DNA from: an uncultured Candidatus Saccharibacteria bacterium
Lineage (GTDB): Bacteria; Patescibacteriota; Minisyncoccia; Phycocordibacterales; UBA9973
Reading direction: 5' to 3'
Assembly: GCA_964419555.1 (NCBI GenBank)
Contig: CAYQPS010000001.1
Span: forward strand, 1 to 33,807
Length of the DNA: 33,807 bases
In this document: in pieces, positions 1-17,336 of the stretch
How the letters are laid out: the number at the start of each line of letters is the position of its first letter
Numbering within the stretch: the stretch's first letter is position 1
Notes under the pieces: model-generated
Database searches by the model: none
Told to the model about the DNA's origin: nothing
Seen by the model: the letters and a program-made list of their open reading frames with translations, nothing else
Position numbers and translations under genes: made by a program

Positions 1-36
1 ATATAGTCCACACTTCTAGTAATAGAAGACAAAGTG

Positions 37-77
37 TAAGCGATTGGTCGTAGGTTCGATCCCTACCCCCGGAGCCC
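37..77 (+). tRNA. Orphan 3' half of a tRNA (Asn-like); the 5' half is absent, so this is probably an att-site remnant
   Basis: The fragment reads anticodon-stem 3' strand GCGAT (40-44), variable loop TGGTC (45-49), T-stem GTAGG (50-54), T-loop TTCGATC (55-61), CCTAC (62-66), acceptor 3' strand CCCCGGA (67-73), discriminator G74, then CCC. Nt 1-36 cannot form D or anticodon arms. A72 + G73 and the GGTCGTAGGTTCGA string resemble bacterial tRNA-Asn as I remember it. Confidence 0.55.
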
Positions 78-1610
78 AATTGGAGAGACAGGCGTCAAAT
101 CGCCTGTTTTCTCTTGTGCAGTAAACATTTTATCTAGTTCGTAATCTTGATTTAGCTTTGGCATCCAGTTTGTTAAGTATTCAGCGGCTAAAGTAAATTT
201 AGGCTTTATTTTATAACCATCCTGTGTAAGGTTCGTAAAAATTTGTGAAAGTAGTAGCCGTTTGTCATCTACGCTTGCTTGCTGATATATTTCTCGAGCA
301 TAGAACGCTAGGCGATGCATGGCTATCCGTAATTCTTTATATGAATCACTCTGCTCACTTACATTAGCTAACGCGGTTTTCAAACTTTCTTCTTCTTCCA
401 AACACTCGTCAATTTTTCTATCACAAAAATCTAATGGCACAGTCTGGTCAATTTTAGCTTCATAATATTTATCTTTGCTCTGGCGAACTTTAGCAAGCAA
501 AGTGTTTAGTCGGGCTGTTTCTACTTCTCTAGTTTTATTATCTTCTTCGAATTCGCTTTTTATAACCCCTTCTATCCAAGAGAGCATTCCGTGACTTTTA
601 GGAGCTATTTGTGCGAAATAGTCTAATATCTGCTCTTCCACTAATTCCTCACGAATGTAGGTCTTTTTGGAGCATTTGCGGGATATTCCGTGGTTATGGC
701 AATGGCCATACCAATGACCTTTTTGTGTTTCCCATGTCAGGGTTCCATTACAATGTTCACAGCGTATTTTACCCTTAAAGATTGAATTGTGTTTCGTAAG
801 ATACGGCTTATTCATTTGTCTTTTCAAATTTACCTGAACCTTATCAAATAAATCCTTAGAAATTATCGCCTCATGTGATGCATCATAAATAACTCCATTC
901 CAACGCATCTTCCCGTAATAAAAAGGGTCGGTGAGCAAAGAGTGAATCCGATTACCCATCAACCTTTTTCCGCTCCGAGTGCGCAATCCCAAGTTATACA
1001 TTTCAATTTCTAAACGAGACAAAGAAGAGTTTCCGGTAGCGTACATTTCAAACATTCTGCGAAGAAGTCCTGCGTCTGAAGTTTGTTTGTGAACTTTGTG
1101 TCCTTTTTCTCCCTTCGATTCATATCCTAGCGGTGGCTTAGTTGGTAACTGCCCTTGAGCAATTTTTTCTTTTTGACCTTTTTTCACTTCTTCGGATAAA
1201 TTATTTATATATTTCCTTGCAATAACTATCTCGATATCCCATCGGAATTTTTCATCTGATTTTGAATTTTTATGCATTATCAGATTGTTTTTAACAAAGT
1301 GTATTTGCCGGTCAGGTAATTCGTCTATCCAATCATTTGCAATAACTGCATCTTTTAAATTCCTTGTGAGTCTATCGACTTTTTCACAGAGTAAAATATT
1401 TATATTATTCTTTTTCATAAACAACATCATCTCATCAAAAATTTTTCTCTGTTTCGTTCCACTAGAAGATTCAGCAATTGAAAAAACTTTTACAATGTGT
1501 AATTCCTTTCTCTGTGCATATTCTTTAAGTAGCTTCTCTTGAGAGGGTAAAGAATATCCTGTTTCTTCTTGCTCTCTTGAGGAAACTCTCGCATAGATTA
1601 CTGCTTTCAT
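63..1610 (-). CDS. Large serine recombinase (integrase)
   Basis: The N-terminus MKAVIYARVSSREQ is the resolvase catalytic-Ser motif. A recombinase domain, a Zn-ribbon (CEHCNGTLTWETQKGHWYGHCHNH) and a C-terminal coiled-coil region follow. Length 515 aa. The start overlaps the upstream ORF stop (ATGA). Confidence 0.9.
   Translation of the reverse strand: MKAVIYARVSSREQEETGYSLPSQEKLLKEYAQRKELHIVKVFSIAESSSGTKQRKIFDEMMLFMKKNNINILLCEKVDRLTRNLKDAVIANDWIDELPDRQIHFVKNNLIMHKNSKSDEKFRWDIEIVIARKYINNLSEEVKKGQKEKIAQGQLPTKPPLGYESKGEKGHKVHKQTSDAGLLRRMFEMYATGNSSLSRLEIEMYNLGLRTRSGKRLMGNRIHSLLTDPFYYGKMRWNGVIYDASHEAIISKDLFDKVQVNLKRQMNKPYLTKHNSIFKGKIRCEHCNGTLTWETQKGHWYGHCHNHGISRKCSKKTYIREELVEEQILDYFAQIAPKSHGMLSWIEGVIKSEFEEDNKTREVETARLNTLLAKVRQSKDKYYEAKIDQTVPLDFCDRKIDECLEEEESLKTALANVSEQSDSYKELRIAMHRLAFYAREIYQQASVDDKRLLLSQIFTNLTQDGYKIKPKFTLAAEYLTNWMPKLNQDYELDKMFTAQEKTGDLTPVSPIGLRG
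88..115 (+). terminator. Rho-independent terminator downstream of the tRNA fragment
   Basis: Stem ACAGGCG (88-94) / CGCCTGT (101-107) with loop TCAAAT, followed by TTTCTCTT. It lies inside the last ~18 codons of the opposite-strand recombinase ORF. Confidence 0.6.
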
Positions 1611-2032
1611 ATATAGATATCTAACAATAAACCCATTAAAATAATAATTATAATTACAAGAGCAGTTATATATTTTCCTCTCTCTTTATAGAGTTCTTTA
1701 TAAAGGATTAAGTTCTGCGCTAAAATTAATTCCAATGACTCATTACTGCTCAGCTTTTCTCTTTTTTGTTTTTCGCCTTCAATCAAAAGTTCCGCTTGAA
1801 CTTTATATTTTAGGTTTTCTAATCTAGCTCGCTCTCTTTGTTGTTCTTGAAAACTTAATTTTTCCATACATTTCTTAATTAAATAATAAAAAGGGACAGC
1901 ATACCTGCAGTCCATAGTACCGGTAGCACAAGGCTTCCGATTATGGAGGCATGCTGCCCCTTTCTGCCCACAATCGGGCTCAAGAAGCGCAAAACCTCGT
2001 GCATATTCCGTTACTATAGACTGCGTTATCAT
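1607..2032 (-). CDS. Hypothetical protein with a Cys-rich N-terminus, a charged coiled-coil and a C-terminal TM helix
   Basis: 141-aa ORF, 8 nt downstream of the RHH stop and overlapping the recombinase start by 4 nt. C-terminal ALVIIIIILMGLLLDIYI is a TM helix. An alternative start at M56 (1867) is possible. Confidence 0.5.
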   Translation of the reverse strand: MITQSIVTEYARGFALLEPDCGQKGAACLHNRKPCATGTMDCRYAVPFYYLIKKCMEKLSFQEQQRERARLENLKYKVQAELLIEGEKQKREKLSSNESLELILAQNLILYKELYKERGKYITALVIIIIILMGLLLDIYI

Positions 2033-2040
2033 TATATCAT

Positions 2041-2184
2041 TTATTTAAGAGTAAAAAACTGCTCTAGAATTTCATTAAGTAAATCGGCCATTTTCTTTCC
2101 TGATTCGACAGCGAAAACCTTCAAAGCCTTGTGATTTGTCTTAGATATTCTTACTTGTTTTGTTGTTTCTTTAATTTGTCTCAT
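2041..2184 (-). CDS. Ribbon-helix-helix (CopG/Arc/MetJ-like) small DNA-binding protein, 47 aa (not in the ORF track)
   Basis: My own translation is MRQIKETTKQVRISKTNHKALKVFAVESGKKMADLLNEILEQFFTLK, a beta-strand (VRISK) plus two helices typical of RHH. TAAAAT (2197-2192) lies 7 nt upstream of the ATG. An in-frame ATG at 2193 is an alternative start. Confidence 0.55.
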   Translation of the reverse strand: MRQIKETTKQVRISKTNHKALKVFAVESGKKMADLLNEILEQFFTLK

Positions 2185-2194
2185 TTGTGACATT

Positions 2195-2590
2195 TTACAT
2201 TTTTGCTCGACCTTTCCCCTTGACCCCCTGTATTCCCGTGATGGGAGGAGGGTTTGGAACTCTGGGAATTTCCCGCAAAAAACTTATTTTTTAATCCTGG
2301 CCATAGCGTTGCGATGCCCCTTAGAGTTAAAGATGCTTCCGTGTCCTCACTTCAACTCCGTATACCATCCAACCTATAACTGAAATATTTCCGGTGCTGT
2401 TCATATGGCTGGGCGACAGGTCGAACCGTCGTTTCCCCAGCTACTCGCAACAACACCTGAATATCCTTTGCAAACAAGTCCAGTTTGCGTTTAAGTAAAC
2501 AACTCGGACAAGTTATTTACTTTTTTACAGAGCAAGATTTTAGTTTTACTTGATAGCCCTGACTCGCAAGGTTCTGATTAAATTTTCAAT
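2195..2590 (-). ncRNA. Candidate structured non-coding RNA of unknown class (alternatively a degraded gene relic)
   Basis: About 400 nt with no ORF of 60 aa or more. Spot counts of single 60-nt lines give 53-57% G+C, against ~23-35% in neighbouring genes. Hairpins are at 2495-2520, 2470-2488, 2408-2441 (nested) and 2324-2358. Two of them carry a single mismatch that is A.C on the plus strand but G.U on the minus strand. Confidence 0.3.
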
Positions 2591-2648
2591 GGGTTATTAA
2601 TAACCCTAAAGTGTCTTAAACTTTCTAGGCAAAGCTAAGACACTTTAG
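2591..2648 (-). terminator. Tandem hairpins ending the 60-aa ORF transcript
   Basis: A 13-bp inverted repeat CTAAAGTGTCTTA (2606-2618) / TAAGACACTTTAG (2636-2648) overlaps the stop codon. The perfect 16-nt palindrome GGGTTATTAATAACCC (2591-2606) follows. Confidence 0.5.
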
Positions 2649-2817
2649 GAGTATCAATTCTTTTTTGATTTCGTTGATTCACTTCGAAGAAAGTTAGGTA
2701 ACATTTTCCTATTTCTTGAGAGAGTTTTCCCAATTTTTCTTCAGAAGAAACAGGAAGTGAATCATTTTCTCTGTGAAGTTTTTTAAAACTATTAATTTGT
2801 TTTTCTTTTAATTCCAT
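2635..2817 (-). CDS. Hypothetical small protein (60 aa)
   Basis: The ORF is divergent from the nuclease gene and is followed by strong hairpins. I recognise no motif. Confidence 0.3.
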   Translation of the reverse strand: MELKEKQINSFKKLHRENDSLPVSSEEKLGKLSQEIGKCYLTFFEVNQRNQKRIDTPKVS

Positions 2818-2924
2818 ATTTTTGTCGCTTATATTACCCTAATTTAACGATAGCATGTGTAAAATAGGGAATATGTGGAATGAATTGCATTACGACACAT
2901 AATGACTTAGTATCAATAGATAAC

Positions 2925-2952
2925 TGTATACATTGGTATATATCTGTATACA
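2925..2952 (+). promoter_or_regulatory. Two TGTATACA palindromes 20 bp apart, bracketing an extended -10 (TGgTATATA, 2934-2942); operator-like
   Basis: TGTATACA occurs at 2925-2932 and 2945-2952. The extended -10 TGgTATATA (2934-2942) lies between them, and the nuclease start follows at 2971. Confidence 0.5.
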
Positions 2953-2970
2953 ATAATGGGGGTAAATACT

Positions 2971-4905
2971 ATGAAGATTAAACGACTGGAAATAGAAAAT
3001 GCTAGAAGTTTCAAAGAAAAAACAATCTTGAATTTTCAAGATGGAATAAATATTTTCATTGGCTCAAACGGTGGTGGCAAGAGTAATTTAATGGATATAG
3101 TTAATATTATTGTTGGATACTTTTTCATATACCCATGGCGAGAAGATAGAAGAGAAAACAACGGTGGGTTATCATATAGCATTCGAGAGAGAAGAGATAT
3201 ATTTAACCCCCTTGAACAGCAACTAGATAAAAACACTGACCTAGAAGACAAAGACCAGAAAATATCAATAACTCTCGAGGTGACAAAAGAAGATGTGGAA
3301 AATCTTAAAATGATTTTCTCGTTTAAAGAGAAACTTACTACTTTTGAGGGCAGTCGCTACAAAGCATCACACTTAGTTAATCTTTTACAGTTTAACGAAC
3401 AACTTGAAGATTATTTAGGGAAAGAATATGTTTTTGATATTGTGAATTACTCACTTAATGTTTTAAATCGTGATAATTTTTCGACAATATTCCTACAATA
3501 TCTAAATTATTTTGAGTATATATCTTTGTTAATTGAGGAATATAATAAAGCTAACAGCCCGAAGATTGACAAGCAACTTTATCCGGTACTTCTTTATTTT
3601 TCTCCTTACAGAAACTCAACTATCCAAAGTTTGAGGGTAAAACTTGCCGGGCAAGATATTTTTAACTTGAGAGATAACTATAAGGGCAATAGCTCACGCA
3701 GTACTTCTACTATATTAGAGTATGCAAATTTTTATTTTGCAGCAAAATTAAGAAGATATAAAGATAATAAGGATATCTTTCTAAAAGATAGAGAGGTTTC
3801 TTTTATAAACAAATATATCAAGAAACTAGGATATGAATACTTCGATATAAGAGTTGTCGATGAAATTAACAACGAGTATGAAATTCTTTTACATAGAGAT
3901 GGGAAGGATATCGAGGTAAGAAAGGCAAGCTCAGGTGAAAAGGAAATCATAAACTTACTTCTAGGCATATTTGCATTCAAGGTGGAAAATGGACTTGTAA
4001 TAATTGATGAACCCGAACTCCATCTTCATCCAAGATGGCAAAAAATATTTTTAACTTTATTTACAGAACTATCTAAAGATTTCGGTATTCAATTCTTAGT
4101 CATAACTCATTCTCCTCAATTTATAAATTACGAAACAATCAAAAATACCCATCGAGTTTTTAAAGAAGATGGTATGAGTAAAATTTTCCGTCCTAGCGCT
4201 GAATTAGTAGAAAAAGACGAAACAAAAGATGTATTTCAAATCATCAACAGTTCTAATAATGAAAGAATGTTTTTTGCTGATAAAGTAGTTTTGGTTGAGG
4301 GTATCGTAGACAAAATAATCTTTGATAAAATTCTTAGATTACTCCAAGAACAAAAAAATAATGTGGAAACAATCGAAATTATTGAGGTGTATGGTAAACA
4401 CAATTTTGAAAGATTTAGAAATTTTCTTAATAATTGGAAAATAAAGAACTTCACAATTGCTGATGTAGACTACGCAAAAGAACTTGATAAAAAATCTACT
4501 CTTTCATCGTTATTTCAAACTAATTATAGAAAAATGAATCAGAAAGTGAAAGAAAAAGGTAGCACTGATAGGAGTGCTTTAATAGAAAAACTAGAGAATT
4601 CTCTTTTAAAAGACTCTACTCCGGTAAAAGAAAAACTAAAAGGGGTAAAAGAATTACTAGATTATATTAAAAATAGAAACTCCTCTCTGCGTAAAGAACT
4701 CACCACCAAAGAACAGAGTCTGCTTAACAGCTTTATTCGTGCCAGTTCAAGAAAAGGAATATTTCTTCTAAGTAAAGGAGAGCTTGAAGATTATTTCAAT
4801 ATATCTCATGCAAGCATTGACGACGCTTTAGCTGTGGGTGAAGATTTGAAAATAATTAAAGACATCCCCGCTGACTTAAAATCGATTTTTAAGAAGATAA
4901 TATAG
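2971..4905 (+). CDS. ABC-type ATPase fused to a Toprim nuclease domain (OLD-family / fused PARIS AriA-AriB-like anti-phage protein)
   Basis: Motifs present are Walker A GSNGGGKSN, signature-like ASSGEKE, Walker B LVIIDEPELHLHP, H-loop ITHSP, Toprim Glu motif VVLVEGIVDKIIF and DxD (ADVDYA). I prefer the start at MKIKRLEIEN (2971), with GGGGG 8 nt upstream, over the track start at 2956. Confidence 0.8.
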   Translation: MKIKRLEIENARSFKEKTILNFQDGINIFIGSNGGGKSNLMDIVNIIVGYFFIYPWREDRRENNGGLSYSIRERRDIFNPLEQQLDKNTDLEDKDQKISITLEVTKEDVENLKMIFSFKEKLTTFEGSRYKASHLVNLLQFNEQLEDYLGKEYVFDIVNYSLNVLNRDNFSTIFLQYLNYFEYISLLIEEYNKANSPKIDKQLYPVLLYFSPYRNSTIQSLRVKLAGQDIFNLRDNYKGNSSRSTSTILEYANFYFAAKLRRYKDNKDIFLKDREVSFINKYIKKLGYEYFDIRVVDEINNEYEILLHRDGKDIEVRKASSGEKEIINLLLGIFAFKVENGLVIIDEPELHLHPRWQKIFLTLFTELSKDFGIQFLVITHSPQFINYETIKNTHRVFKEDGMSKIFRPSAELVEKDETKDVFQIINSSNNERMFFADKVVLVEGIVDKIIFDKILRLLQEQKNNVETIEIIEVYGKHNFERFRNFLNNWKIKNFTIADVDYAKELDKKSTLSSLFQTNYRKMNQKVKEKGSTDRSALIEKLENSLLKDSTPVKEKLKGVKELLDYIKNRNSSLRKELTTKEQSLLNSFIRASSRKGIFLLSKGELEDYFNISHASIDDALAVGEDLKIIKDIPADLKSIFKKII

Positions 4906-5055
4906 CTCTTAGTTAGGTCATCCCTTCCATAGATTATTTAAGAGTTTTAGGAACTGGCACCACCTAAAATCCATTTTTCAAAAGACCAAGGAGGAGAGTA
5001 CTATACCCCTTTGAGTTTACAACTCTATATACTGATGCATACTTAAATATAAAGA

Positions 5056-5106
5056 TGTATACAAAAATATACTCCTGTATATTAGCTAATCGGTAAGTGT
5101 TATAAT
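5056..5106 (+). promoter_or_regulatory. Second TGTATACA-N12-TGTATATT pair plus an extended -10 (TGtTATAAT, 5098-5106) placed 6 nt before the ATG
   Basis: TGTATACA is at 5056-5063 and TGTATATT at 5076-5083, the same 20-bp spacing as at 2925/2945. TATAAT is at 5101-5106 and the ATG at 5113. Confidence 0.5.
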
Positions 5107-5112
5107 TAGCAT

Positions 5113-5814
5113 ATGAAAGTACATATCGTCATGCATGAGAGTTTTGAAGCTCCAGGAGCCATAGAGACATGGGCTAAGAATAAGAAACACGAAATATCAT
5201 ATACAAGATTATATGCCGGAGATACTTTCCCGGAAGAATGCAATTTTGATTTCCTTGTTGTTATGGGTGGGCCACAATCCCCGGAAACAACAATTGATGA
5301 ATGCCCACATTTTGATGCTAAAAAAGAAATAGCTTTTATAAAGAAGGCTGTTGAGCAAGATAAAATTTTGCTTGGAGCATGTCTTGGAGCACAGTTTATA
5401 GGTGAGGCTCTGGGTGCACATTTCGGACATAGCCCTAATAGAGAAATAGGAGTTTTCCCTATTACTCTGACCGAGGATGGAAAACAAGACTCGATATTCT
5501 CTACTTTCCCTGATAAGTTTATGGTGGGTCATTGGCATGGTGATATGCCAGGACTTACTCCTGAATCTAAGATTCTTGCAGTAAGCGAAGGATGTCCTCG
5601 ACAGATAGTTCGCTATGCTTCAAAGATTTACGGATTCCAATGTCATTTTGAGTTTACTCCAGAAGCTATCGAAGGAATGATAGAGAATAATGCTCACGAA
5701 TTAGAACAATATAAAGACTTACCATACATACAAACTGCGGAACAACTAAGAAAAAATGATTACTCGGGAATGAATGAATTGTTATTTACTTTCTTAGATA
5801 AAATTACTAGCTAA
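5113..5814 (+). CDS. Class I glutamine amidotransferase-like protein (GuaA-type GATase domain only)
   Basis: The nucleophile elbow GACLGAQ and the downstream HFEF His/Glu region are present. Length 233 aa. Confidence 0.75.
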   Translation: MKVHIVMHESFEAPGAIETWAKNKKHEISYTRLYAGDTFPEECNFDFLVVMGGPQSPETTIDECPHFDAKKEIAFIKKAVEQDKILLGACLGAQFIGEALGAHFGHSPNREIGVFPITLTEDGKQDSIFSTFPDKFMVGHWHGDMPGLTPESKILAVSEGCPRQIVRYASKIYGFQCHFEFTPEAIEGMIENNAHELEQYKDLPYIQTAEQLRKNDYSGMNELLFTFLDKITS

Positions 5815-5818
5815 TCAC

Positions 5819-6331
5819 ATGACTAACACTGTAAATCCACTTGAATATCACTACAAGACCGGCATTAAATTAGATTACTTCATCTTGAGTGTAGACATAG
5901 CGCTGTTGGGTTGGACTATAGTAAATACCGACTGGCTTCCCAGTGGAGAAGTTTTCATATGGCTTATTGGTGTCTTTTGGGTGCTTATAATTCTATCTAT
6001 AATTTGTGGTGTTATCAGACAATTATATAATGGCATGACTTTCGGGCTAAATCATCAATATTTACAGGCCGGAGAATTAGCAAGTGTTATTGAAAGGAGT
6101 ACTTTTCAGGGCAGTGGTAAATTTGTAAATCAACAAACTGAGGAAATTATAGAAGGCGCAGAATTCAAAGAATTAGCTAGGCCTCATAGAGAAAGCGAAA
6201 AGGAAGGGAAAGAGCTTTATACAAAAATGGCCAGGAAATCAACAGTGTTCGCAAATCTTGCACTGGGTTTCTTAGTATTAGCTTTATGCTTACTTGCAGG
6301 AATAAAGATTTATATATTAACTATTAGCTAA
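5819..6331 (+). CDS. Hypothetical membrane protein (two N-terminal TM helices and one C-terminal TM helix)
   Basis: The ORF starts 4 nt after the GATase stop. Hydrophobic segments are ILSVDIALLGWTIV, FIWLIGVFWVLIILSIICGVI and ANLALGFLVLALCLLAGI. Confidence 0.6.
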   Translation: MTNTVNPLEYHYKTGIKLDYFILSVDIALLGWTIVNTDWLPSGEVFIWLIGVFWVLIILSIICGVIRQLYNGMTFGLNHQYLQAGELASVIERSTFQGSGKFVNQQTEEIIEGAEFKELARPHRESEKEGKELYTKMARKSTVFANLALGFLVLALCLLAGIKIYILTIS

Positions 6332-6351
6332 TTATTGTTTCCAATAATTTT

Positions 6352-6942
6352 ATGGATATAAAAATAATTCTCGGAGCAATTGCAGTAATCTTGGCTTTTG
6401 TCAGTTCTTTTATTTACATCCGAGATATTTTTAGAGGAAATTCAAAACCTCATACCTATACTTGGCTTATTTGGGCTATCGTTACCTGGATAGCATTTGG
6501 AGGACAATGGGTATCCGGAGGAGGGCCTGGCGCTTGGGCGACTGGAGCATCTGCTCTTCTTACCACTTTTACACTCCTTCTTTCATTAAAAGGAAACTAC
6601 GGAACAAAGGACATTACAAATTTTGATAAAATATGTTTGGCTTTTGCGCTGGTCTCTATTTTACCTTGGCTTTTAGTTGATAGTGTTCTTTGGTCTGTGA
6701 TACTAGCATCTTTAATTGATGTTATAGGATTTTTCCCAACTATGCGAAAAACTTGGTATGCGCCTAAAAGCGAATCGCTCGCATCAATGTGGGTTGATTT
6801 CGTAAAACATACATTATCCATTATGTCGATGAGAAATTACTCTTTAATTACTTGGTTGTATCCTGCTGCGGTTTTACTGACGAAAGTGATTATTATAGGT
6901 GAAATAACTTTCTTGCGACAAATAAAGAAAATTAAAGACTAA
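6352..6942 (+). CDS. Hypothetical polytopic membrane protein (~6 TM helices)
   Basis: 196-aa ORF, hydrophobic throughout, with no family I can name confidently. Confidence 0.6.
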   Translation: MDIKIILGAIAVILAFVSSFIYIRDIFRGNSKPHTYTWLIWAIVTWIAFGGQWVSGGGPGAWATGASALLTTFTLLLSLKGNYGTKDITNFDKICLAFALVSILPWLLVDSVLWSVILASLIDVIGFFPTMRKTWYAPKSESLASMWVDFVKHTLSIMSMRNYSLITWLYPAAVLLTKVIIIGEITFLRQIKKIKD

Positions 6943-7007
6943 GTTTTGAGAGACAAGAATAACTGCTTAAATTGATTAGGTAGTACGGATGGATAAGGAA
7001 ATATTTC

Positions 7008-7036
7008 TTGCCATTTAATAGTTCGTAAGTTATACT
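7008..7036 (+). promoter_or_regulatory. Sigma70-like promoter with no obvious downstream gene
   Basis: TTGCCA (7008-7013), a 17-nt spacer, then TATACT (7031-7036). Only ORFs of 14 aa or fewer follow. Confidence 0.35.
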
Positions 7037-7189
7037 GCCAAGCGAGCCCAGTGAAAAAAATATGTGTTATATGGATTACCATATAGCAATGGCGCTCGGA
7101 CATTAAACAAATAAACTTGTTTATGCTCCTCGCTTATTGCTATAATAAGCTAAAGGTCGCTTATTATTAATTCTAATCACTCATATCCT

Positions 7190-7327
7190 ATGTCGCTATT
7201 TACTGTCGCAGAAGTTGTTTTCTTTCTCGTTTTCGGTATTAGTAGTTTTTTTCCTTTTAAATACTCGAAGGAAATTTGTGCAATTGCAGCAATTGTTATC
7301 GGAATTCTTTTAGTTGTTAAGTATTAA
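7190..7327 (+). CDS. Possible 45-aa two-TM micro-protein (not in the ORF track)
   Basis: My own translation is MSLFTVAEVVFFLVFGISSFFPFKYSKEICAIAAIVIGILLVVKY. TGcTATAAT lies upstream at 7138-7146. Confidence 0.3.
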   Translation: MSLFTVAEVVFFLVFGISSFFPFKYSKEICAIAAIVIGILLVVKY

Positions 7328-7530
7328 AAAAACGTTATCTAGAAAAACAAGTTCCAACATCCTCTATCCAGTGGAGCAATGGTTCCGTACCAGTTTTTCT
7401 ATGCTACGATAGGGGGTGGTGATTTTGTTGAAGATATTCAATTGGTATTAAAACATTGAGGGCATGCTTATCGGCGCCGGGTCTTTATTTTAAACACCAT
7501 ACATCAGCTCTGGAGGCTCTATTTCCCCCA

Positions 7531-7559
7531 TTGACTTTTAGTATAAAATATGCTATACT
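7531..7559 (+). promoter_or_regulatory. Promoter of the protease gene
   Basis: TTGACT (7531-7536), a 17-nt spacer, then TGcTATACT (-10 at 7554-7559). This places the track start at 7550 inside the promoter. Confidence 0.6.
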
Positions 7560-7576
7560 ATACATTAGTAGATAAT

Positions 7577-9964
7577 ATGAAAAAGAGTAGAAAATACAAC
7601 TTATTTTTCTCAGCGTTTTTAATTTTTTCCCTCCTTTTGGGTAGTTTGCCTGTTTCGGCATTTGAAGAAAATACAGTTAATATTGAGCAACCGGAGCAAC
7701 TTGTAGTTGAAATTTTACCTATTGCTGAAGAGTTTGAAATATTAACTCCTCCAGTCACCGAAGAAAATATAGAAGTAGTAGAGCCAATAGTTTCAGAAGA
7801 AATTATTGAACCAGAAAAATCTGAACAAATAGAAGAAATAGAAGGAGATTATGTAGAAGGCGAAGTTTTAGTTAAATACGCAGAGGAAAGTGAGATTTCA
7901 GTTTTAGAAATTACAGATGAGGATACAGTTGCAGAGAAAATCGCTGAACTAGAAAATGATCCGAATGTTGAATACGCAGAGCCAAACTATACTCGCGAGA
8001 TAACCAGTATTGTTACAAATGATACACACAGAGGTTTGCTGTGGGGGCTAGACAACACAGCTCAAATTATTGACGGGGTAACAGGCACGAATGATGCTGA
8101 CATAGATGCACCTGAGGCTTGGGCAATAAACGAGGGGACCAATGCTTCTGTGACAGTAGCGGTGATAGATACCGGTGTGTTGTATACTCATCCCGACTTG
8201 ACGGCAAATATGTGGGACGGGACAAATTGTAAAAATGAAAGTGGTGTTGCCATAGTGGGCGGCTGCAATCACGGCTATGACTATTTAAATAACGACAATA
8301 CGCCCCTGCCTTCCGTGCCGTCGACCCCTTCTACGTTTCATGGTACACATGTTGCAGGAATAATTGGCGGACAAAAAAATAATGATCAGGGTGTCATCGG
8401 AGTGGCTCCAAATGTAAAAATAATGGCTATCAAATTCGGACTTGATGTCTCTTCAGAAGTTAAAGCAATTGACTTTGCAACTCAAAACGGAGTAAAAGTT
8501 ATCAATGCTAGTTATGGAGGAGCTGGTTTTTCTCAACCTGAATTTGATGCTATAAGTCGCTTTAAAGACGCCGGAGGAATTTTCATCGCGGCTTCGGGAA
8601 ATAATAATGCTAACAACGATGCTACCGGATTTTATCCTGCAAGTTATGATTTAGATAATATTATTTCTGTAGCCGCTACCGACCAAAACGATTTATTGGC
8701 AAATTTTTCAAACTACGGCGCTACTTCTATCGATGTAGGTGCGCCCGGAACAAATATTTACAGTACAGTGCTTAGCAACGGTTATGATTATGCAGATGGC
8801 ACTTCTATGGCTACTCCGCATGTGACAGGTCTGGTGGCGCTACTTTGGGGTTATAGACCCAGCCTTACGGCAACAGAAGTAAAAGATTCAATTTTAGATA
8901 ATGGAGACAATCTCGCGTCTCTTGCCGGCAAAACAGTTACGGGTAAAAGAATAAATGCGTTCAATACTCTTAACGAAGATATCACTGCGCCAGTTATTAC
9001 TTTGCTTGGCGCCAGTCCGGTTGATTTTTTTGTTGGTGATCCGGCGTATATTGATGCTGGAGCCACTGCTCTCGACGACGTTGATGGAGACATTACAGCA
9101 AATATTGTTGTCGGAGGCGACGTCGTGGATATCAACCTAGCAGAAACTTATGTAATTACTTACAATGTTTCCGATACGGCAGGCAACACGGCGACGGAAG
9201 TCACTAGAACCATAAACGTTATTGTTCCAGATACCACAGCTCCCATCATTACTTTAAACGGTGCAAATCCAATGAACTTGACTGCGGGTGACACTTTTAC
9301 CGATCCGGGAGCAACGGCTCTTGACGATGTTGATGGCGCAGTCAGTGTAGTAGCTTCCGGAGTGGTTGATACTGCTGTCGTAGATACTTATACAATCTCT
9401 TACGCTGCTACTGATGTAGCTTTTAATACTGCCACAGCGACTCGTACTGTGAATGTAAATGCTGTGCCTACTCCTCCATCATCAAGTGGCGGCGGGGGCG
9501 GCGGGGGAGGTGGCGGTGGAAAAAAGAAAGTTGCTCCTTTGGTTATTTTGCCTTCGAGTCTGTCCGCAATTCCCAATGGATGCGTTTCCGGCAATTTGTT
9601 CAGCCCAATTACCGGAGCAAAGTGCCCGACAAGCTCGGCAACTATCTCTGGATGTGTTGTCGGTAATTTATTTAGCTCTGTCACTGGAGCGCCGTGTGGA
9701 AATAATTCCGCAGTTGTCGGTGGAGTCGGTGGAGTTTTGGGCGCAGAGGCATTTCAATTTACACTTTTGCTTAAACTTGGCTCACGCGGGCCGGAAGTAA
9801 TGGAGCTTCAAAAATTACTAAACAATAAAGGCTATGACTGCGGAGTGGCGGATGGCACTTTTGGTCAAAAAACTAAAAACTGTGTAGCCCTATTTCAAAT
9901 TTCAAATGGGCTTCCAGGCGTCGGCATCGTGGGTCCCATGACTCGCGCTACTTTGAATAAATAA
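7577..9964 (+). CDS. Secreted subtilisin-family (S8) serine protease with 2 Ig-like (DUF5011-type) repeats, a Gly/Lys linker, 2 Cys-bracketed short repeats and a C-terminal peptidoglycan-binding domain
   Basis: Signal peptide MKKSRKYNLFFSAFLIFSLLLGSLPVSAFE. Catalytic triad motifs VAVIDTGV, HGTHVAG and GTSMATPHV. Two ITLxGAxP...ATALDDVDG repeats. CVSGNLFSPITGAKC and CVVGNLFSSVTGAPC. PG_binding_1-like LGSRGPEVMELQKLLN...GxFGxxT. Confidence 0.85.
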   Translation: MKKSRKYNLFFSAFLIFSLLLGSLPVSAFEENTVNIEQPEQLVVEILPIAEEFEILTPPVTEENIEVVEPIVSEEIIEPEKSEQIEEIEGDYVEGEVLVKYAEESEISVLEITDEDTVAEKIAELENDPNVEYAEPNYTREITSIVTNDTHRGLLWGLDNTAQIIDGVTGTNDADIDAPEAWAINEGTNASVTVAVIDTGVLYTHPDLTANMWDGTNCKNESGVAIVGGCNHGYDYLNNDNTPLPSVPSTPSTFHGTHVAGIIGGQKNNDQGVIGVAPNVKIMAIKFGLDVSSEVKAIDFATQNGVKVINASYGGAGFSQPEFDAISRFKDAGGIFIAASGNNNANNDATGFYPASYDLDNIISVAATDQNDLLANFSNYGATSIDVGAPGTNIYSTVLSNGYDYADGTSMATPHVTGLVALLWGYRPSLTATEVKDSILDNGDNLASLAGKTVTGKRINAFNTLNEDITAPVITLLGASPVDFFVGDPAYIDAGATALDDVDGDITANIVVGGDVVDINLAETYVITYNVSDTAGNTATEVTRTINVIVPDTTAPIITLNGANPMNLTAGDTFTDPGATALDDVDGAVSVVASGVVDTAVVDTYTISYAATDVAFNTATATRTVNVNAVPTPPSSSGGGGGGGGGGGKKKVAPLVILPSSLSAIPNGCVSGNLFSPITGAKCPTSSATISGCVVGNLFSSVTGAPCGNNSAVVGGVGGVLGAEAFQFTLLLKLGSRGPEVMELQKLLNNKGYDCGVADGTFGQKTKNCVALFQISNGLPGVGIVGPMTRATLNK

Positions 9965-10000
9965 AAAACTTAAAAGTAGTAAAAAAACACGGTCAGAACA

Positions 10001-10029
10001 TTGACGCATTTTTATGGAAATGCTATTCT
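10001..10029 (+). promoter_or_regulatory. Promoter of the 103-aa ORF
   Basis: TTGACG (10001-10006), a 17-nt spacer, then TGcTATTCT (-10 at 10024-10029). GGAG (10054-10057) lies 9 nt before the ATG at 10067. Confidence 0.55.
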
Positions 10030-10066
10030 CCGGTTGGAATTTCACACACATACGGAGAAACGCACC

Positions 10067-10378
10067 ATGCAAGTTCCCAAGTTAAAGTGGAGGGAGAAAC
10101 GCGGAGATGGGTGGAGTAAAACTCGTTACTCCGGGTTGTATTTCTATATCGACGGCCGGCATCCAGTGTTGGTCTCAAGAATTTCTCCTCAAGCACTTCG
10201 AGTCGTGCAAAAAGGAGAAAATTCAGAGTATCGATTTATTTCACCGCTTGAGCGCGTCGAAGTCTCCAAGTCGTTCATCAATGCTGCGAAAGTAGCGCTT
10301 GAAGCAGGCGTTGCCATTACGTCTCGGGAGCAACTCGACGAATTTGAAAGGGCGATGTCACCTGTTGCTCGAGTGTGA
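10067..10378 (+). CDS. Hypothetical protein (103 aa) in the GC-rich islet
   Basis: The ORF has its own promoter, SD and terminator. The track start at 10001 is the -35 box read as TTG. No recognisable motif. Confidence 0.55.
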   Translation: MQVPKLKWREKRGDGWSKTRYSGLYFYIDGRHPVLVSRISPQALRVVQKGENSEYRFISPLERVEVSKSFINAAKVALEAGVAITSREQLDEFERAMSPVARV

Positions 10379-10404
10379 CTCGTCAACTATTGGTTCACAA
10401 CAAC

Positions 10405-10446
10405 GAGCGCACGACTTGAAAGTCGTGCGCTCGCTATCTTTTTTAT
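10405..10446 (+). terminator. Rho-independent terminator
   Basis: A 12-bp stem GAGCGCACGACT (10405-10416) / AGTCGTGCGCTC (10421-10432) with loop TGAA, then GCTATCTTTTTT. Confidence 0.8.
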
Positions 10447-10531
10447 TCTATAGCTCAAATGAGTGAATAAGCACAAACCTCCCAAAGCGTGCTATAATCA
10501 GCGAGTTACTTTATCAATAACATGAAATTAT

Positions 10532-10651
10532 ATGGCAAAACGAAGTACAACACTTAGTCCAAAGAAAAAATCAAGACGCTCAAAGAAGACCAAGAAACGT
10601 CTGGAAATAAAGAGACAGATGCTAGCTAAAAAAGCGGCTAGAAGAAAATAA
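10532..10651 (+). CDS. Possible 39-aa highly basic micro-protein (not in the ORF track)
   Basis: My own translation is MAKRSTTLSPKKKSRRSKKTKKRLEIKRQMLAKKAARRK. TGcTATAAT lies at 10490-10498 and a strong hairpin follows at 10680-10703. Confidence 0.4.
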   Translation: MAKRSTTLSPKKKSRRSKKTKKRLEIKRQMLAKKAARRK

Positions 10652-10679
10652 TATTAGATTCTGGACTCTAAACGAATCT

Positions 10680-10703
10680 GGGCTCTTCCGTTTGGAAGAG
10701 CCC
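10680..10703. terminator. Bidirectional hairpin between convergent ORFs
   Basis: A perfect 10-bp stem GGGCTCTTCC / GGAAGAGCCC with loop GTTT. Confidence 0.65.
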
Positions 10704-10727
10704 GTCGCTTTGATGTTACTATTCGTG

Positions 10728-11192
10728 TCAGTGGGGAAGCTGATGACCTTTTCCTCGATGAATCATGCGCCGCCGATCCCGGCTGGAAAGCTGGGCGAGT
10801 CTCCTTCTCAAGTATGAAAACTCCAGCGAATCTGCGAGGGCTTCAAGGTCCTCATTGACGAGACGCGTGTCTCCTCTCCTCGCCGAACTTCCGTTCGGCG
10901 CCCTAGTCTTCTTGGGAAGGACGTTGATCGGGGTCGTAGCTTGGAACGCTGAGAATCCATCTCCTGGGGTCTCGAGGTCGATCTCGATGTCCATGTCGTC
11001 GAACGGGGAGTCCGACGAAAGGAAGTGATGCATCTCCGTCAGCACCTCATTGGGATTTTTGAGGGCGGACCAATCGCCTTCAGCTCTGTCGAGCCTTTCC
11101 TCAGCGGAAAGGTAGGGGGTGACCCGGCGGGCTGTTGTGAGCGCCTTTTGTACAAGACGTTCAGTGGAGGGGGAAGGGATACCACGAGGCAT
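10728..11192 (-). CDS. Hypothetical protein (154 aa), GC-rich, low-complexity and charged
   Basis: AGGAA lies ~9 nt upstream of the ATG. No recognisable domain. Spot G+C of single lines is 50-62%. Confidence 0.5.
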   Translation of the reverse strand: MPRGIPSPSTERLVQKALTTARRVTPYLSAEERLDRAEGDWSALKNPNEVLTEMHHFLSSDSPFDDMDIEIDLETPGDGFSAFQATTPINVLPKKTRAPNGSSARRGDTRLVNEDLEALADSLEFSYLRRRLAQLSSRDRRRMIHRGKGHQLPH

Positions 11193-11339
11193 GTTGCTTA
11201 TTCCTGTAGTGTAGGGTGAAAGGACGAACTCAATTTAATTTTAATACTATCTTATGAGTTTCGCAAGGATTATACACAGATTTTGTGATATACTTAAACT
11301 GAAGGAGTAATAATTATTAGTTTAATATTAAAAATATTT

Positions 11340-11699
11340 ATGGCAGATGATAACAATAGTGCTGGTGCTGTAGGGAGTTCTTCAGATAGTAAAAAAAACA
11401 ATAGAACTTTGTTTGGTATTTTGGCGTATCTTTGGATATTAATCGCTATCCCTTTTGCGATGGCGAAAGGTGACCCTTTCGTTAAGTTTCATATCAAGCA
11501 GGGCCTTCTATTACTCATCATTGAACTAATCGTATATATTCTAGGGCCAATGCTTTTCCTTTCATCAGGTATGATGTTGATGAGGTTAATTCATTTAATA
11601 CTCTTTGTCTTTATTATATTTGGCATCATAAATGTTTTACAGGGTAAAGAAAAAGAACTTCCACTCATCGGGCATTTCGCGAAGTATTTCAAGTTTTAA
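11340..11699 (+). CDS. Small membrane protein, DUF4870-like
   Basis: Three TM helices and the FHIKQG motif after TM1, typical of this family as I recall it. TGaTATACT lies upstream at 11286-11294. Confidence 0.6.
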   Translation: MADDNNSAGAVGSSSDSKKNNRTLFGILAYLWILIAIPFAMAKGDPFVKFHIKQGLLLLIIELIVYILGPMLFLSSGMMLMRLIHLILFVFIIFGIINVLQGKEKELPLIGHFAKYFKF

Positions 11700-11703
11700 A
11701 ATT

Positions 11704-12366
11704 TTAAAAATCCTCGTCTTCTTTTTCCAGAAGGTCATTCCAGACTAGGAGTTTCCATTCGGGTTTCTGAAACCAACCGGTGATGTATTCACAGATAGTC
11801 ATACCAGCGTTGTCTATTGGATTAAAATAACTCAAAGTATTGTATTTAGAGGCGGTCAGACTCTCTCCATAGAGCAAGTAAGCGACGACCATTTTAAGAA
11901 AAATTCCATGGGTTACCATGATAAGTCTTTCTTCTTTTCTTTCGGCTATGTAAGCCAAAAGTTTTCTAGCTCTTTCTTTTAAGTCAACGAAGTTTTCTTC
12001 ATCGGAGTATCGAAAATTGTCGTCGTGAAATCTGTTGTCAATAAGACCGACAATTTGCGCTACATCTTTTTCCGTTCCAGAGCGTCCGACTATTTCTGTA
12101 GGATTTTTTCTTTCCACTAATAGGTCGCAATACTCGACAGGCATATTTAATTCCTTGGCGATGATGCCCGATGTCTCGCGAGTGCGCTGATATGGACTCG
12201 CAATTATTACCTGGGGTCGTCCTTTCTTCTTAGGAAACTTTTTTGCAGTTTCCATGGCTTGCGCGCGTCCTTTCTCGGTCAGTGGTCCCTCAGGTCCTTG
12301 TCGGATGCCTTTTGCATTGAGTACGGTCTCTCCATGTCGAACGAAATAAATTAATTTTACTGGCAT
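11704..12366 (-). CDS. Histidine phosphatase (phosphoglycerate-mutase-like) family protein
   Basis: The FVRHGET (RHG) motif and a later VTHG are present. I prefer the ATG at 12366 over the TTG at 12372. TGcTATAAA (12383-12375) lies 8 nt upstream. Confidence 0.8.
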   Translation of the reverse strand: MPVKLIYFVRHGETVLNAKGIRQGPEGPLTEKGRAQAMETAKKFPKKKGRPQVIIASPYQRTRETSGIIAKELNMPVEYCDLLVERKNPTEIVGRSGTEKDVAQIVGLIDNRFHDDNFRYSDEENFVDLKERARKLLAYIAERKEERLIMVTHGIFLKMVVAYLLYGESLTASKYNTLSYFNPIDNAGMTICEYITGWFQKPEWKLLVWNDLLEKEDEDF

Positions 12367-12423
12367 GCTCAATATTTATAGCATTTATTAGTTAAACTTT
12401 CTAGGGCAAATTTTCTGCAAAAC

Positions 12424-12432
12424 TGCTAGAAT
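12424..12432 (+). promoter_or_regulatory. Extended -10 (TGcTAGAAT) placed 6 nt before the DedA ATG
   Basis: TAGAAT is at 12427-12432 and the ATG at 12439. Confidence 0.5.
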
Positions 12433-12438
12433 ATATCC

Positions 12439-13050
12439 ATGGCCGAAATAATCGAATGGATACAGGCGCTTTTTTCTAATTATCCGCACTACCAATATTT
12501 GATTATTTTTTTAGGTGCGGGTTTCATAGGTGAGCCCGCTATTTTACTTTTCGGGTTTCTGGCCGCGACCGGTGTCTTGTCTATTGGGGCTGTAATTATC
12601 TTCGGAGTGCCGGGAGCTTTTTTGTCGGACTGTTTGTGGTTTTGGCTTGGCAAAACTCGCCCTATTCGAAAGTTAATTTCTCATCGCCACGCGACTACTT
12701 TTTTGGAAACTATTATAGAGACCATGAGACGGGCCAGTCGAGGGAATTATCCTCTGGCTCTAGTGTTTGCAAAATTTGTTACTGGCACTCGTATTCCGAT
12801 GATTTTACATATGAGTAATAACCAGTTCCCGTTTTTAAAGTTCATGCGCTTCAACACTATAGCAACTTCTTTTTGGGCTTCGGTTGTAATTTCTATAGGT
12901 TTTCTTTCTGGTCTTGGGTTTACACTTCTCTCCGGAGCTCTCAAGAGCGCCTATGCGGGTATCGGATTTATTTTCTTGATTGTTGTAGCCATAATTCTAT
13001 TCCAAAAATGGCTTAAAAAGAGATTTAGAGACAAAGAAGAAGTAAAATAA
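12439..13050 (+). CDS. DedA/VTT-family membrane protein
   Basis: A polytopic protein with GAGFIGEPA and FAKFVTGTRIP motifs resembling DedA signatures. Confidence 0.65.
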   Translation: MAEIIEWIQALFSNYPHYQYLIIFLGAGFIGEPAILLFGFLAATGVLSIGAVIIFGVPGAFLSDCLWFWLGKTRPIRKLISHRHATTFLETIIETMRRASRGNYPLALVFAKFVTGTRIPMILHMSNNQFPFLKFMRFNTIATSFWASVVISIGFLSGLGFTLLSGALKSAYAGIGFIFLIVVAIILFQKWLKKRFRDKEEVK

Positions 13051-13057
13051 CCACTAC

Positions 13058-13085
13058 TTGATTTTAGGCTTTTTTAATGTAAGAT
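13058..13085 (+). promoter_or_regulatory. Candidate promoter of the sRNA/leader
   Basis: TTGATT (13058-13063), a 16-nt spacer, then TAAGAT (13080-13085). Confidence 0.4.
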
Positions 13086-13091
13086 TCAGGA

Positions 13092-13325
13092 GAAGTTGAA
13101 TGGCCGAGGTGTGGGTAGATTCACGAGCGAAGTAGTTTTGCTCAATCTTCCATCGAGAGGAGAGAGTGAAAAAGGGGCTGTGTAAGTCAGCCCCAAACTG
13201 GCCACCCGGAGGCCAGACCCGAGCAGGCCTGTTGGGCTGCAAAGAACTTGCTATCTCACAAGGATAGTTTGAACACCGGGATCGAGGGTAGTCGTGATTT
13301 CTACGGCTACCCTCATCTATTTTTA
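13092..13325 (+). ncRNA. Candidate ~235-nt structured RNA (sRNA or riboswitch-like leader) ending in an intrinsic terminator
   Basis: Spot G+C is 50-63%. Hairpins are GGGGCTG (13174-80) / CAGCCCC (13188-94) and CTGGCC (13198-203) / GGCCAG (13211-16). The terminator is a 13-bp stem at 13284-13314 (including U.G pairs valid only on the plus strand) plus a T-run to 13325. The 62-aa antisense ORF in the track is judged spurious. Confidence 0.4.
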
Positions 13326-13378
13326 TACAAAATTAAATGTGAATATTTTATATTTTATCGTATAATAAAAACTCAATT

Positions 13379-13846: not shown

Positions 13847-13869
13847 ATTTGCTTGTGGTCCCCGTTTGT

Positions 13870-13878
13870 TGATATAAT
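13870..13878 (+). promoter_or_regulatory. Extended -10 (TGaTATAAT) placed 6 nt before the cupin ATG
   Basis: TATAAT is at 13873-13878 and the ATG at 13885. Confidence 0.5.
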
Positions 13879-13884
13879 TGTTTC

Positions 13885-15364: not shown

Positions 15365-15371
15365 AATTTAC

Positions 15372-17306: not shown

Positions 17307-17321
17307 AAATTTTTCAGTCTG

Positions 17322-17330
17322 TGCTATAAT
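17322..17330 (+). promoter_or_regulatory. Extended -10 (TGcTATAAT) placed 6 nt before the hpf ATG
   Basis: TATAAT is at 17325-17330 and the ATG at 17337. Confidence 0.55.
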
Positions 17331-17336
17331 AGTTAG

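Follow-up and report, generated by a model that had tools for sequence, protein, structure and literature searches.

A large serine recombinase family at tRNA-Asn genes and a candidate defense island in a Patescibacteria-like genome

Some small site-specific elements with few cargo genes encode recombinases that contain a Resolvase domain, a Recombinase domain and a zinc ribbon. These include the SCC cassettes (CcrA/B/C), the fdxN element (XisF), and Tn4451 (TnpX), which is approximately 6 kb long. To our knowledge, serine integrases that use a tRNA gene are uncommon. Genomic islands in tRNA genes (Islander/TIGER type) are usually catalyzed by tyrosine integrases, according to an excerpt of PMC4383910. 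Here we describe a locus that shares features with both kinds of element: a large serine recombinase (LSR) gene that ends inside the 3' end of a tRNA-Asn gene, with several small genes and a gene for an OLD-family nuclease beside it. The locus is at the left end of contig CAYQPS010000001.1. The complete contig of 33,807 nt is the stretch of DNA that was analyzed (the window), and its left end is inside an intron of the tRNA-Asn gene.

We found that related recombinase genes end at a tRNA-Asn gene throughout one of two groups of relatives, that occupancy of this site varies, and that relatives carry defense genes. These results support a mobile-island reading for the family. For the window itself we favor, with modest confidence, the notion that its left end is the tRNA-proximal part of a small island, that the LSR family of this island has the 3' end of tRNA-Asn(GUU) as its integration site and the OLD nuclease is cargo, and that this copy is now fixed. 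The conserved core of such an island would consist of a 60-aa protein, a spacer, a ribbon-helix-helix (RHH) repressor, a small membrane or orphan protein, and the LSR. Since the LSR gene ends inside the tRNA 3' end, the element would supply the tRNA-proximal att arm. Cargo would lie beyond the core on the opposite strand, here a single OLD nuclease that would act as P2 Old and TsOLD do. The window copy would have arrived by LSR-mediated integration. It is probably immobilized now, a decayed or rearranged copy fixed in place and not an active minimal element, because neither a far att site nor a gene for excision or replication was detected in it.

The features at the left end of the window are as follows. 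Loci from related genomes and metagenomes carry L numbers.

1 to 36, plus strand: final 36 nt of an apparent group I intron inside the tRNA-Asn anticodon loop (identical in L098 and L132; S element, P9 and terminal G)
37 to 74, plus strand: 3' exon of tRNA-Asn(GUU), aligned to ARAGORN-called tRNA-Asn genes of seven relatives
63 to 1610, minus strand: LSR, 515 aa (Pfam Resolvase, Recombinase and Zn_ribbon_recom; PHROG integrase)
88 to 110, plus strand: hairpin ACAGGCG-TCAAAT-CGCCTGT and then TTTT, inside the LSR C-terminal codons, read from the sequence
1607 to 2032, minus strand: 141-aa open reading frame (ORF), an orphan, with a 4-nt ATGA overlap with the LSR start
2041 to 2193 (or 2041 to 2184), minus strand: putative small RHH (Arc-like) protein, 50 aa, with weak RHH_10 and Arc-like matches, separated from the 141-aa ORF by an 8-nt gap
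2194 to 2634, minus strand: ORF-free spacer, 441 nt, 42% G+C, with an unusually stable predicted fold on the minus strand
2635 to 2817, minus strand: 60-aa protein from a small family whose members are encoded beside LSRs of this kind; the copy in the window has diverged
2956 to 4905, plus strand: stand-alone OLD-family ABC-ATPase and Toprim nuclease, the proposed cargo (Pfam, PADLOC, fold match and motifs)
4906 to 5112, no strand: intergenic region, the minimal candidate for the right limit, with no att-like repeat

An earlier note on this DNA, made from the letters and a list of ORFs, had described a minus-strand gene string at this end. All of its ORFs were recovered, as were the 8-nt gap and the ATGA overlap.

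The recombinase family and its link to tRNA-Asn

The three LSR domains that the earlier note had proposed looking for were all found above the Pfam cut-offs: PF00239 Resolvase (1.4e-20, residues 3-154), PF07508 Recombinase (2.6e-14) and PF13408 Zn_ribbon_recom (8.7e-09). The protein also matched a PHROG integrase family (4e-75) and contains the motif YARVSSREQ at residues 6-14, with the expected catalytic serine. The last 12 nt of the gene overlap the tRNA 3' end. The best NCBIfam similarities were to CcrB, CcrA and XisF. These scored 100 bits against equivalog cut-offs of 900 or 375, so the LSR is not a member of those families. The targets also differ: SCC and the fdxN element use rlmH or fdxN, whereas the target in the window family is a tRNA gene, and the window has no second recombinase or mobilization gene.

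Homologs of the LSR were plentiful (2,097), and more than 100 of 515-555 aa aligned over the full length. Identity was at most 68%. An exact look-up of the LSR gave no record of it as a called gene, and there was no match among PDB sequences at 1e-5. We found no paper in the literature describing this family, and the family itself seems under-described.

The LSR loci that we fetched formed two groups. Long-type recombinases (552 aa, 65-66% identity) are in larger elements with genes for a TrwB-like coupling protein, ArdC, RadC and Rep_O-like proteins. No tRNA is adjacent, and the elements resemble integrative and conjugative elements; two of them (L017 and L021) carry a Gabija-like pair of OLD and UvrD genes. 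Short-type recombinases (515-547 aa, 46-63% identity) are encoded by genes that run toward a tRNA-Asn gene and stop inside or beside its 3' end, and this was true of all of them (16 genome loci and further metagenome contigs). Their hosts are Yanofsky-, Nomura-, Morani-, Wolfe- and Saccharibacteria, together with metagenome-assembled genomes (MAGs) labeled Omnitrophota and Bdellovibrionales. The tRNA gene is intact in L003-L005, L012-L015, L026, L028 and L030, cut by the contig end in L001 and L009, and split by an intron in L006, L007, L008 and L011. The overlap between the LSR and tRNA genes is typically 9-15 nt, and a conserved hairpin comes next. The LSR is the terminal gene in every relative. 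Together with the tRNA on the left side of the window, this led us to reject the possibility, raised in the earlier note, that the recombinase belongs to a larger prophage extending leftward.

One relative has clear ends. In L003 the tRNA 3' end, from the T loop on, is repeated directly over 19 nt at a distance of 7.4 kb, and the two att junctions delimit an element that contains genes for an RHH protein, a membrane protein, the LSR, and HTH_17, Mrr_cat, DpnI-like and DUF5677 proteins. The window had been called very compact for an LSR-borne element; next to the repeat-bounded 7.4 kb of L003 its size is not exceptional. In L012 the far end has a copy of the anticodon arm and the acceptor 3' strand. 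Most relatives have no detectable repeat, so its absence from the window is weak evidence either way. The lack of a repeat in most relatives is compatible with the little identity that serine-integrase sites need.

The family thus shares several properties with tRNA-gene islands of the Islander/TIGER type. The integrase gene is the terminal gene beside an intact tRNA gene, the element appears to supply the tRNA 3' end, a displaced tRNA fragment is found at the far end of at least one relative (L003), and the cargo consists of accessory or defense genes. Unlike those islands, the enzyme is an LSR and not a tyrosine recombinase, most members have no long direct repeat, and the window copy has no far-end repeat at all.

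We found that occupancy of the tRNA-Asn site varies. Metagenomes were scanned for loci with an identical 30-mer from the tRNA end (window positions 46-75), which yielded at least 120 loci. Loci were sorted into those with a close LSR (identity of 40% or more), those with a distant serine recombinase in the same convergent position (24-40% identity), and those with neither. Among the loci listed, 72 had informative sequence downstream: 7 had a close LSR, 16 had a distant serine recombinase, and 49 had none (23 vs. 49). The presence/absence comparison that the earlier note called for thus gave a divided answer, in that site occupancy varies at the level of clades among the loci listed, and no empty site was found for this genome. 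The LSR may catalyze attP x attB integration at tRNA-Asn, as is indirectly suggested by the consistent position of its family beside that gene and by the differing occupancy among genomes.

The cargo of relatives lies beyond the core, mostly on the strand opposite to the LSR gene, and the OLD gene in the window has the same position and orientation. L028 carries Schlafen/AlbA_2 and DUF5677 genes. L008, from Saccharibacteria, carries a frameshifted OLD gene and a UvrD gene in a Gabija-like arrangement. OLD-family genes are present in four islands of this LSR family.

Two further observations concern recombinase genes near tRNA-Asn. L067 and L145, two of the loci with the closest LSRs, contain a second, distant serine recombinase gene (546 aa, 24-25% identity to the window LSR) 0.3-2.4 kb away on the 5' side of tRNA-Asn, so that the tRNA gene is flanked by recombinases on both sides. 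In L095 a 164-aa ORF directly after the tRNA looks, by eye, like the C-terminal coiled coil of an LSR; it gave no tblastn signal with the window LSR.

The nuclease gene and the conserved core

The OLD gene encodes 649 aa from its first ATG (644 aa in the database gene model). Its product matched AAA_15 (6e-29) and OLD-like_TOPRIM (PF20469, 3.5e-16), and also AAA_21 and SMC_N. The Walker A (GSNGGGKS36), Walker B (LVIIDE347) and Toprim (VLVEG445 and DVD503) motifs are invariant across an alignment of 27 homologs. A PADLOC search, proposed in the earlier note, returned Old as the best model (1.2e-35), ahead of the AriA, PtuA and GajA models. Matches among PDB sequences include TsOLD (6P74), over the region from Walker B to Toprim. 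An AlphaFold model made with 27 homologs had a mean pLDDT of 86, and its best fold match was 6P74, the OLD protein of Thermus scotoductus (TsOLD). Retron Eco8 OLD and GajA followed with similar E-values and TM scores of ~0.4.

Based on these results, membership in the OLD family is firm. OLD classes are defined by gene context (PMC10568477), with Gabija as Class 2, retrons as Class 3 and PARIS as Class 4; the fold search does not tell the window protein apart from Class 2 (GajA, which has a helical insert in Toprim) or Class 3 (retron Eco8) OLDs. By context the window OLD is Class 1, because no UvrD, reverse transcriptase (RT) or AriB gene is adjacent. Its neighbors are the divergently oriented 60-aa ORF and a GATase gene, and no helicase or RT domain was found in the Pfam-scanned ORFs between 63 and 30193. 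The description of the gene as a single-polypeptide ATPase-Toprim nuclease of the OLD type is thus borne out.

Like the Class 1 proteins P2 Old and TsOLD, the window OLD has an N-terminal ATPase, a C-terminal Toprim domain with E and DxD, and a single-gene context. It exceeds TsOLD by ~120 aa and has a helical extension at its C-terminus (residues ~505-644), and the two are ~14% identical in the structural alignment. Class 1 genes are typically outside defense islands (PMC10568477). In contrast, the closest homolog of the window OLD (50% identity) is inside one, where its gene stands alone at one end of an AbiEii/LexA/AlwI restriction-modification cluster. The Gabija (GajA/GajB) cargo of L008, L017 and L021 also includes an OLD nuclease, in the same relative position and with the same recombinase family; it differs in having an adjacent UvrD-like GajB gene, which is absent from the neighborhood of the window OLD. 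The ATPase and nuclease mechanism of OLD proteins is the subject of PMC7049728, and a Class 1 OLD from Vibrio cholerae is reported in PMC12392090 to defend against phage. By analogy, the window protein is most likely a single-gene anti-phage nuclease in which an ATP-dependent ABC-ATPase would control a two-metal Toprim DNase.

The gene order of the core is shared with relatives. L001, L003 and L028 have the same order as the window: the 60-aa gene, a spacer of ~272 nt, the RHH gene, a gene for a membrane protein of ~149 aa, and the LSR gene. In the loci with the closest LSRs (L145, L030 and L067), an HTH_17 excisionase-like gene, a gene of 466-478 aa, or both are beside the 60-aa gene.

The 60-aa protein belongs to a family with the consensus MELKPEQI..F.ELH...ANGVANYYLTLF. 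Homologs are encoded beside both short-type and long-type LSRs (L001-L004, L017-L021, L028, L030, L067 and L145), and the family had no match in Pfam, PHROG, NCBIfam or PDB, the last searched also with a profile. The double hairpin previously noticed at this ORF was confirmed: a strong inverted repeat with 23-nt arms (2596-2618 and 2636-2658) spans the stop codon, and the palindrome GGGTTATTAATAACCC is nearby.

The RHH assignment is weak in the window (RHH_10, E=0.007, below the cut-off; Arc-like PHROG, 0.005). Homologs are in the same position in L003, L008, L001, L028 and L015 (phmmer, 4e-7 to 3e-5). Of the earlier proposal of an RHH gene here, the ORF thus holds and the family assignment is less certain. 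The protein is a probable repressor of the operon formed by the RHH gene, the 141-aa ORF and the LSR gene. Either the RHH protein or the 60-aa protein could also be an unrecognized recombination directionality factor (RDF). Searches of Pfam, PHROG, NCBIfam and PADLOC gave no hit for the 141-aa ORF, whose product has a Cys-rich N-terminus and a C-terminal hydrophobic helix. In relatives its place is taken by a membrane protein of 149 aa that is unrelated to it.

The spacer between the 60-aa and RHH genes had been described as GC-rich. It is indeed free of ORFs, but its 42% G+C equals the contig average and is high only in comparison with its AT-rich neighbors. The minus strand from 2194 to 2530 has a predicted folding energy of -109.4 kcal/mol (z=-4.3; none of 100 shuffled sequences was as stable); the plus strand has z=-2.3. 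The region contains a minihelix-like hairpin, GCUGGG-GAAA-CGACGG-UUCGAC-CUGUCG-CCCAGC. There was no Rfam match at E<=10, no blastn or tblastx similarity among 155 loci, and no alignment with the ~272-nt spacer of L001, L003 and L028. Of the regulatory RNA suggested earlier, then, the thermodynamic signal is present and homologs were not found in these searches. It is plausible that the spacer is a leader or operator region, a small RNA, or decayed DNA. A reading of the spacer and OLD gene as a retron (Class 3 OLD) was rejected, as there is no reverse transcriptase.

The ~272-nt spacer of the relatives is conserved at the nucleotide level (L001:4665-4935, L028:6803-7073 and L003:9025-9299), with recombinases that are quite divergent. 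This suggests that it is a functional non-coding element in that subgroup. LOOT RNA (Rfam RF03000, 72 and 77 bits) was found in two unrelated recombinase islands next to tRNA-Asn, at L008:4943-5074 and L096:424-555, both on the minus strand and 1-2 kb upstream of a serine recombinase gene. The window spacer is comparably placed and has no LOOT match.

Boundaries, mobility and alternative explanations

Several results weigh against the reading of the window as part of an LSR island with OLD as cargo. We looked for a displaced copy of the tRNA-Asn end, TCCCTACCCCCGGAGC, and found no second copy, direct or inverted, in the 33.8-kb contig, whether exact, with up to 3 mismatches, or with 4-18 mismatches, using probes of 12 to 38 nt (there were only chance-level hits in genes). 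No pair of att junctions delimits an element in the window, and we found no convincing inverted-repeat partner for the tRNA-side arm. Unlike L030, L145 and L003, the window has no HTH_17 or Xis gene, and it has no gene of ~470 aa like that in L145, L030 and L067. It has no replication gene, unlike the closest relatives, and no relaxase or coupling protein gene, unlike L017-L021. Four relatives of the GATase gene at 81-85% identity had no conserved neighbors and gave no empty site, and we found no close relative with conserved flanks that shows an empty site for this locus. The core itself appears worn: the 141-aa ORF matched only itself among 1.84 billion representative sequences and had no relatives in the metagenome scan, and the 60-aa ORF lacks most of the near-invariant residues of its family in the alignment. 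Finally, composition does not mark a limit at ~5 kb, since G+C at third codon positions (GC3) stays at 0.24-0.32 from the GATase gene through an S8 protease gene to ~9964.

Homology points to a minimal right limit. The GATase (5113-5814) is 75-89% identical to hundreds of Patescibacteria proteins and looks like a core gene, while OLD homologs are at most 50% and LSR homologs at most 68% identical; for this reason 4906-5112 is the minimal candidate. The first firmly host-linked markers are a 45-aa ORF (7190-7327) and a 39-aa gene (10532-10651). The limit could be at ~4.9 kb or as far as ~10 kb. A 33-nt similarity flanking the OLD gene (2925-2957 and 5036-5068, 73%) was also considered and dropped, as it was estimated to be at chance level for AT-rich DNA. 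The earlier idea of a ~5-kb mobile module survives as an island reading for the family; for the window no attR was found, and the ~5-kb size and present mobility are unproven.

The LSR and OLD genes might instead be unrelated neighbors, with a decayed LSR remnant (from the tRNA to the 60-aa ORF, ~2.8 kb) beside an independently acquired OLD gene that is not recombinase cargo. The two genes do differ in composition and ancestry: OLD has a G+C of 0.31 and its 50% homolog is in a defense island without an LSR, compared to 0.37 for the LSR gene. The degraded state of the core (an orphan ORF, a diverged 60-aa ORF, and no Xis gene, replication gene or attR) fits as well, and the 3' flank of tRNA-Asn varies in relatives even where there is no LSR. 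However, in the repeat-bounded L003, in L028 and in L008, defense genes are placed and oriented with respect to the core exactly as OLD is here, and the LSR family has four islands in which an OLD-family gene occurs. We consider independent acquisition possible and rather doubtful. If instead the low GC3 (0.16-0.32 for all genes between 63 and 9964, vs. 0.39-0.46 for most backbone genes) is taken as the guide, the island would extend from 74 to ~10,000 and include the GATase gene, two membrane protein ORFs, the 45-aa ORF and a secreted S8 protease gene, ending before the 39-aa gene. Consistent with a larger island, synteny around the GATase gene is not conserved in relatives, and L087, which has the same orientation as the window and no LSR, has only 1.7 kb between the tRNA and the 39-aa gene and CTP_transf gene. 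This is improbable in view of the core-like conservation of the GATase, the occurrence of the 45-aa ORF and the 39-aa gene as host genes near tRNA-Asn in genomes without an LSR, the low GC3 of Fmt and a 1226-aa ORF as well, and the lack of an att repeat near 10 kb.

We think it very unlikely that the LSR is domesticated or acts mainly as an invertase that flipped a tRNA-Asn segment relative to the backbone and thereby separated two att sites. Such a flip would explain the missing attR, which would now be to the left of the contig end. The gene block CTP_transf-GH130-S30AE-Fmt-Def-HisRS and the 39-aa gene lie 5' of tRNA-Asn in most relatives (including L124, L141, L149 and L044) and 3' of it in the window, L004, L087 and L095. 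Some lineages thus have tRNA-Asn inverted with respect to the backbone. How tRNA-Ala is ordered and oriented relative to tRNA-Asn varies as well, and the tRNA-Asn locus (window 74-17735) is a rearrangement hot spot. However, L087 has the same orientation without an LSR, so that inversion need not involve the element; rearrangements are common at this divergence, and no inverted att-like repeats were identified. In L087 the tRNA is followed by the 39-aa gene and the CTP-transferase gene, with two small P-loop ORFs in the 1.7-kb gap.

Our results are most consistent with a small, fixed LSR island. We hold only tentatively a broader version, in which an undescribed, phylum-spanning LSR family uses tRNA-Asn as attB and makes it a hot spot at which Patescibacteria exchange defense islets of one system each (OLD, Gabija, Mrr/DpnI-like, Schlafen/DUF5677). 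In that version the 60-aa protein would be a possible RDF, the spacer would produce, in this genome, a structured leader RNA of ~340 nt that controls the RHH-LSR operon, and the window copy would be a minimal or stranded member, possibly flipped by the recombinase together with its tRNA. How Patescibacteria with tiny genomes acquire phage defense is poorly understood. The relatives suggest that much of the traffic passes through the tRNA-Asn 3' end in serine-recombinase islets of a few kb, each with one system. If the att sites were defined, they could give a compact tRNA-targeting serine integrase for organisms without genetic tools, and a simple marker for new defense genes in candidate-phyla genomes. 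The window itself would add one more stand-alone OLD nuclease, in a probably immobilized islet.

The interrupted tRNA-Asn gene and the rest of the contig

The earlier note had the 3' end of the LSR gene running into a tRNA 3' half. The tRNA piece (37-74) is real, and it is the 3' exon of an intron-split gene. It spans the third anticodon base, the 3' strand of the anticodon stem, the variable loop, the T arm, the acceptor 3' strand and the discriminator. Joined to the 5' exon of a relative, it gives a 72-nt sequence with a GUU anticodon. A reading of the tRNA fragment as an att scar was ruled out, because positions 1-36 are the end of the intron and 37-74 the exon.

The intron appears to belong to group I. 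Three landmarks of its 3' part are present in the window, namely the terminal G, the S element ATATAGTCC (P7') and a P9 hairpin with the sequence CTTCTA-GTAA-TAGAAG, and positions 1-45 are identical to the intron/exon junction of L098 and L132. Complete introns in relatives matched Rfam RF00028 (68 and 79 bits for L098/L132; 72 and 81 bits for L006/L011). L130 and L096 also have complete Rfam group I introns (67-79 bits for L098, L132, L130 and L096 together). The P9 hairpin shows compensatory substitutions among loci, and several relatives share a junction pattern of ATGATATAGTCCAC, a hairpin with a GNRA loop, and GTG|TAA. In L006 (2902-3586) the 5' exon ends in CTGT ~650 nt upstream, an ORF for an HNH endonuclease lies within the intron, and the splice sites are CTGT|...G|TAA. 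Neither ARAGORN nor Rfam called an RNA gene in the window, because the window includes no more of the gene than its 3' exon and the final 36 nt of the intron.

In ~45 of the at least 120 loci that share the tRNA end, a group I intron interrupts the tRNA-Asn(GUU) gene behind the second base of the anticodon. There was no significant link between the presence of the intron and occupancy by a recombinase (12/23 vs. 13/49, Fisher p=0.06). Group I introns are found in many bacterial tRNAs and are frequent in metagenomic "unnamed phyla", according to an excerpt of bioRxiv 10.1101/2020.01.27.920355. Several LSR contigs, including the window, end inside the tRNA or the intron, which suggests that these contig ends reflect assembly breaks.

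The hairpin at 88-110 folds at -18.8 kcal/mol and has equivalents at the same position in relatives. It is likely the terminator of the tRNA gene.

A different element of ~150 nt lies directly 3' of tRNA-Asn in L036, L084 and L120, and at +2.0-2.2 kb in L095. Its ends mimic the acceptor and T stems of tRNA-Asn (TCCGGGG, a hairpin, GTAGGG, ~95 nt, and then CCCTACCCCCGGAGC), and Rfam gave no match for it. The element may represent a tRNA-derived small RNA or a scar left by integration in the T loop. The 16-nt copies of the tRNA end in L036, L084, L095 and L120 had been considered as attR sites; they are the 3' end of this element and were dropped.

The contig is chromosomal by gene content. The backbone from 13 kb on encodes a CTP-transferase, two GH130 proteins, S30AE, Fmt, Def, HisRS, signal peptidase, Pth, DnaE and GAPDH. 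The best homologs of contig genes came from MAGs resembling Paceibacteria, Taylorbacteria, Nomurabacteria and Yanofskybacteria. From these similarities the host is Patescibacteria-like, in agreement with the reduced-genome host of the candidate phyla radiation (CPR) type that had been considered. The nuclease gene is AT-rich, as also noticed earlier: the OLD gene has 30.7% G+C and the LSR gene 36.7%, compared to ~41% in the backbone. A phage database searched with positions 1-5200 gave no match.

Outside the proposed island, a 154-aa ORF (10728-11192, minus strand) is a compositional outlier, with 57% G+C and a GC3 of 0.63 against a contig mean of ~40%; it has no Pfam match. The 39-aa gene (10532-10651, plus strand) encodes a very basic, unannotated protein, MAKRSTTLSPKKKSRRSKKTKKRLEIKRQMLAKKAARRK, with no NCBIfam match. 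At least 18 loci have a conserved copy (72-84% identity at the nucleotide level), and the distance to tRNA-Asn is usually a few hundred nt. Two non-coding stretches (6985-7146 and 7335-7377) flank the 45-aa ORF (7190-7327) and are 80-94% identical to sequence near tRNA-Asn in L131, L140, L139, L040, L106 and L121.

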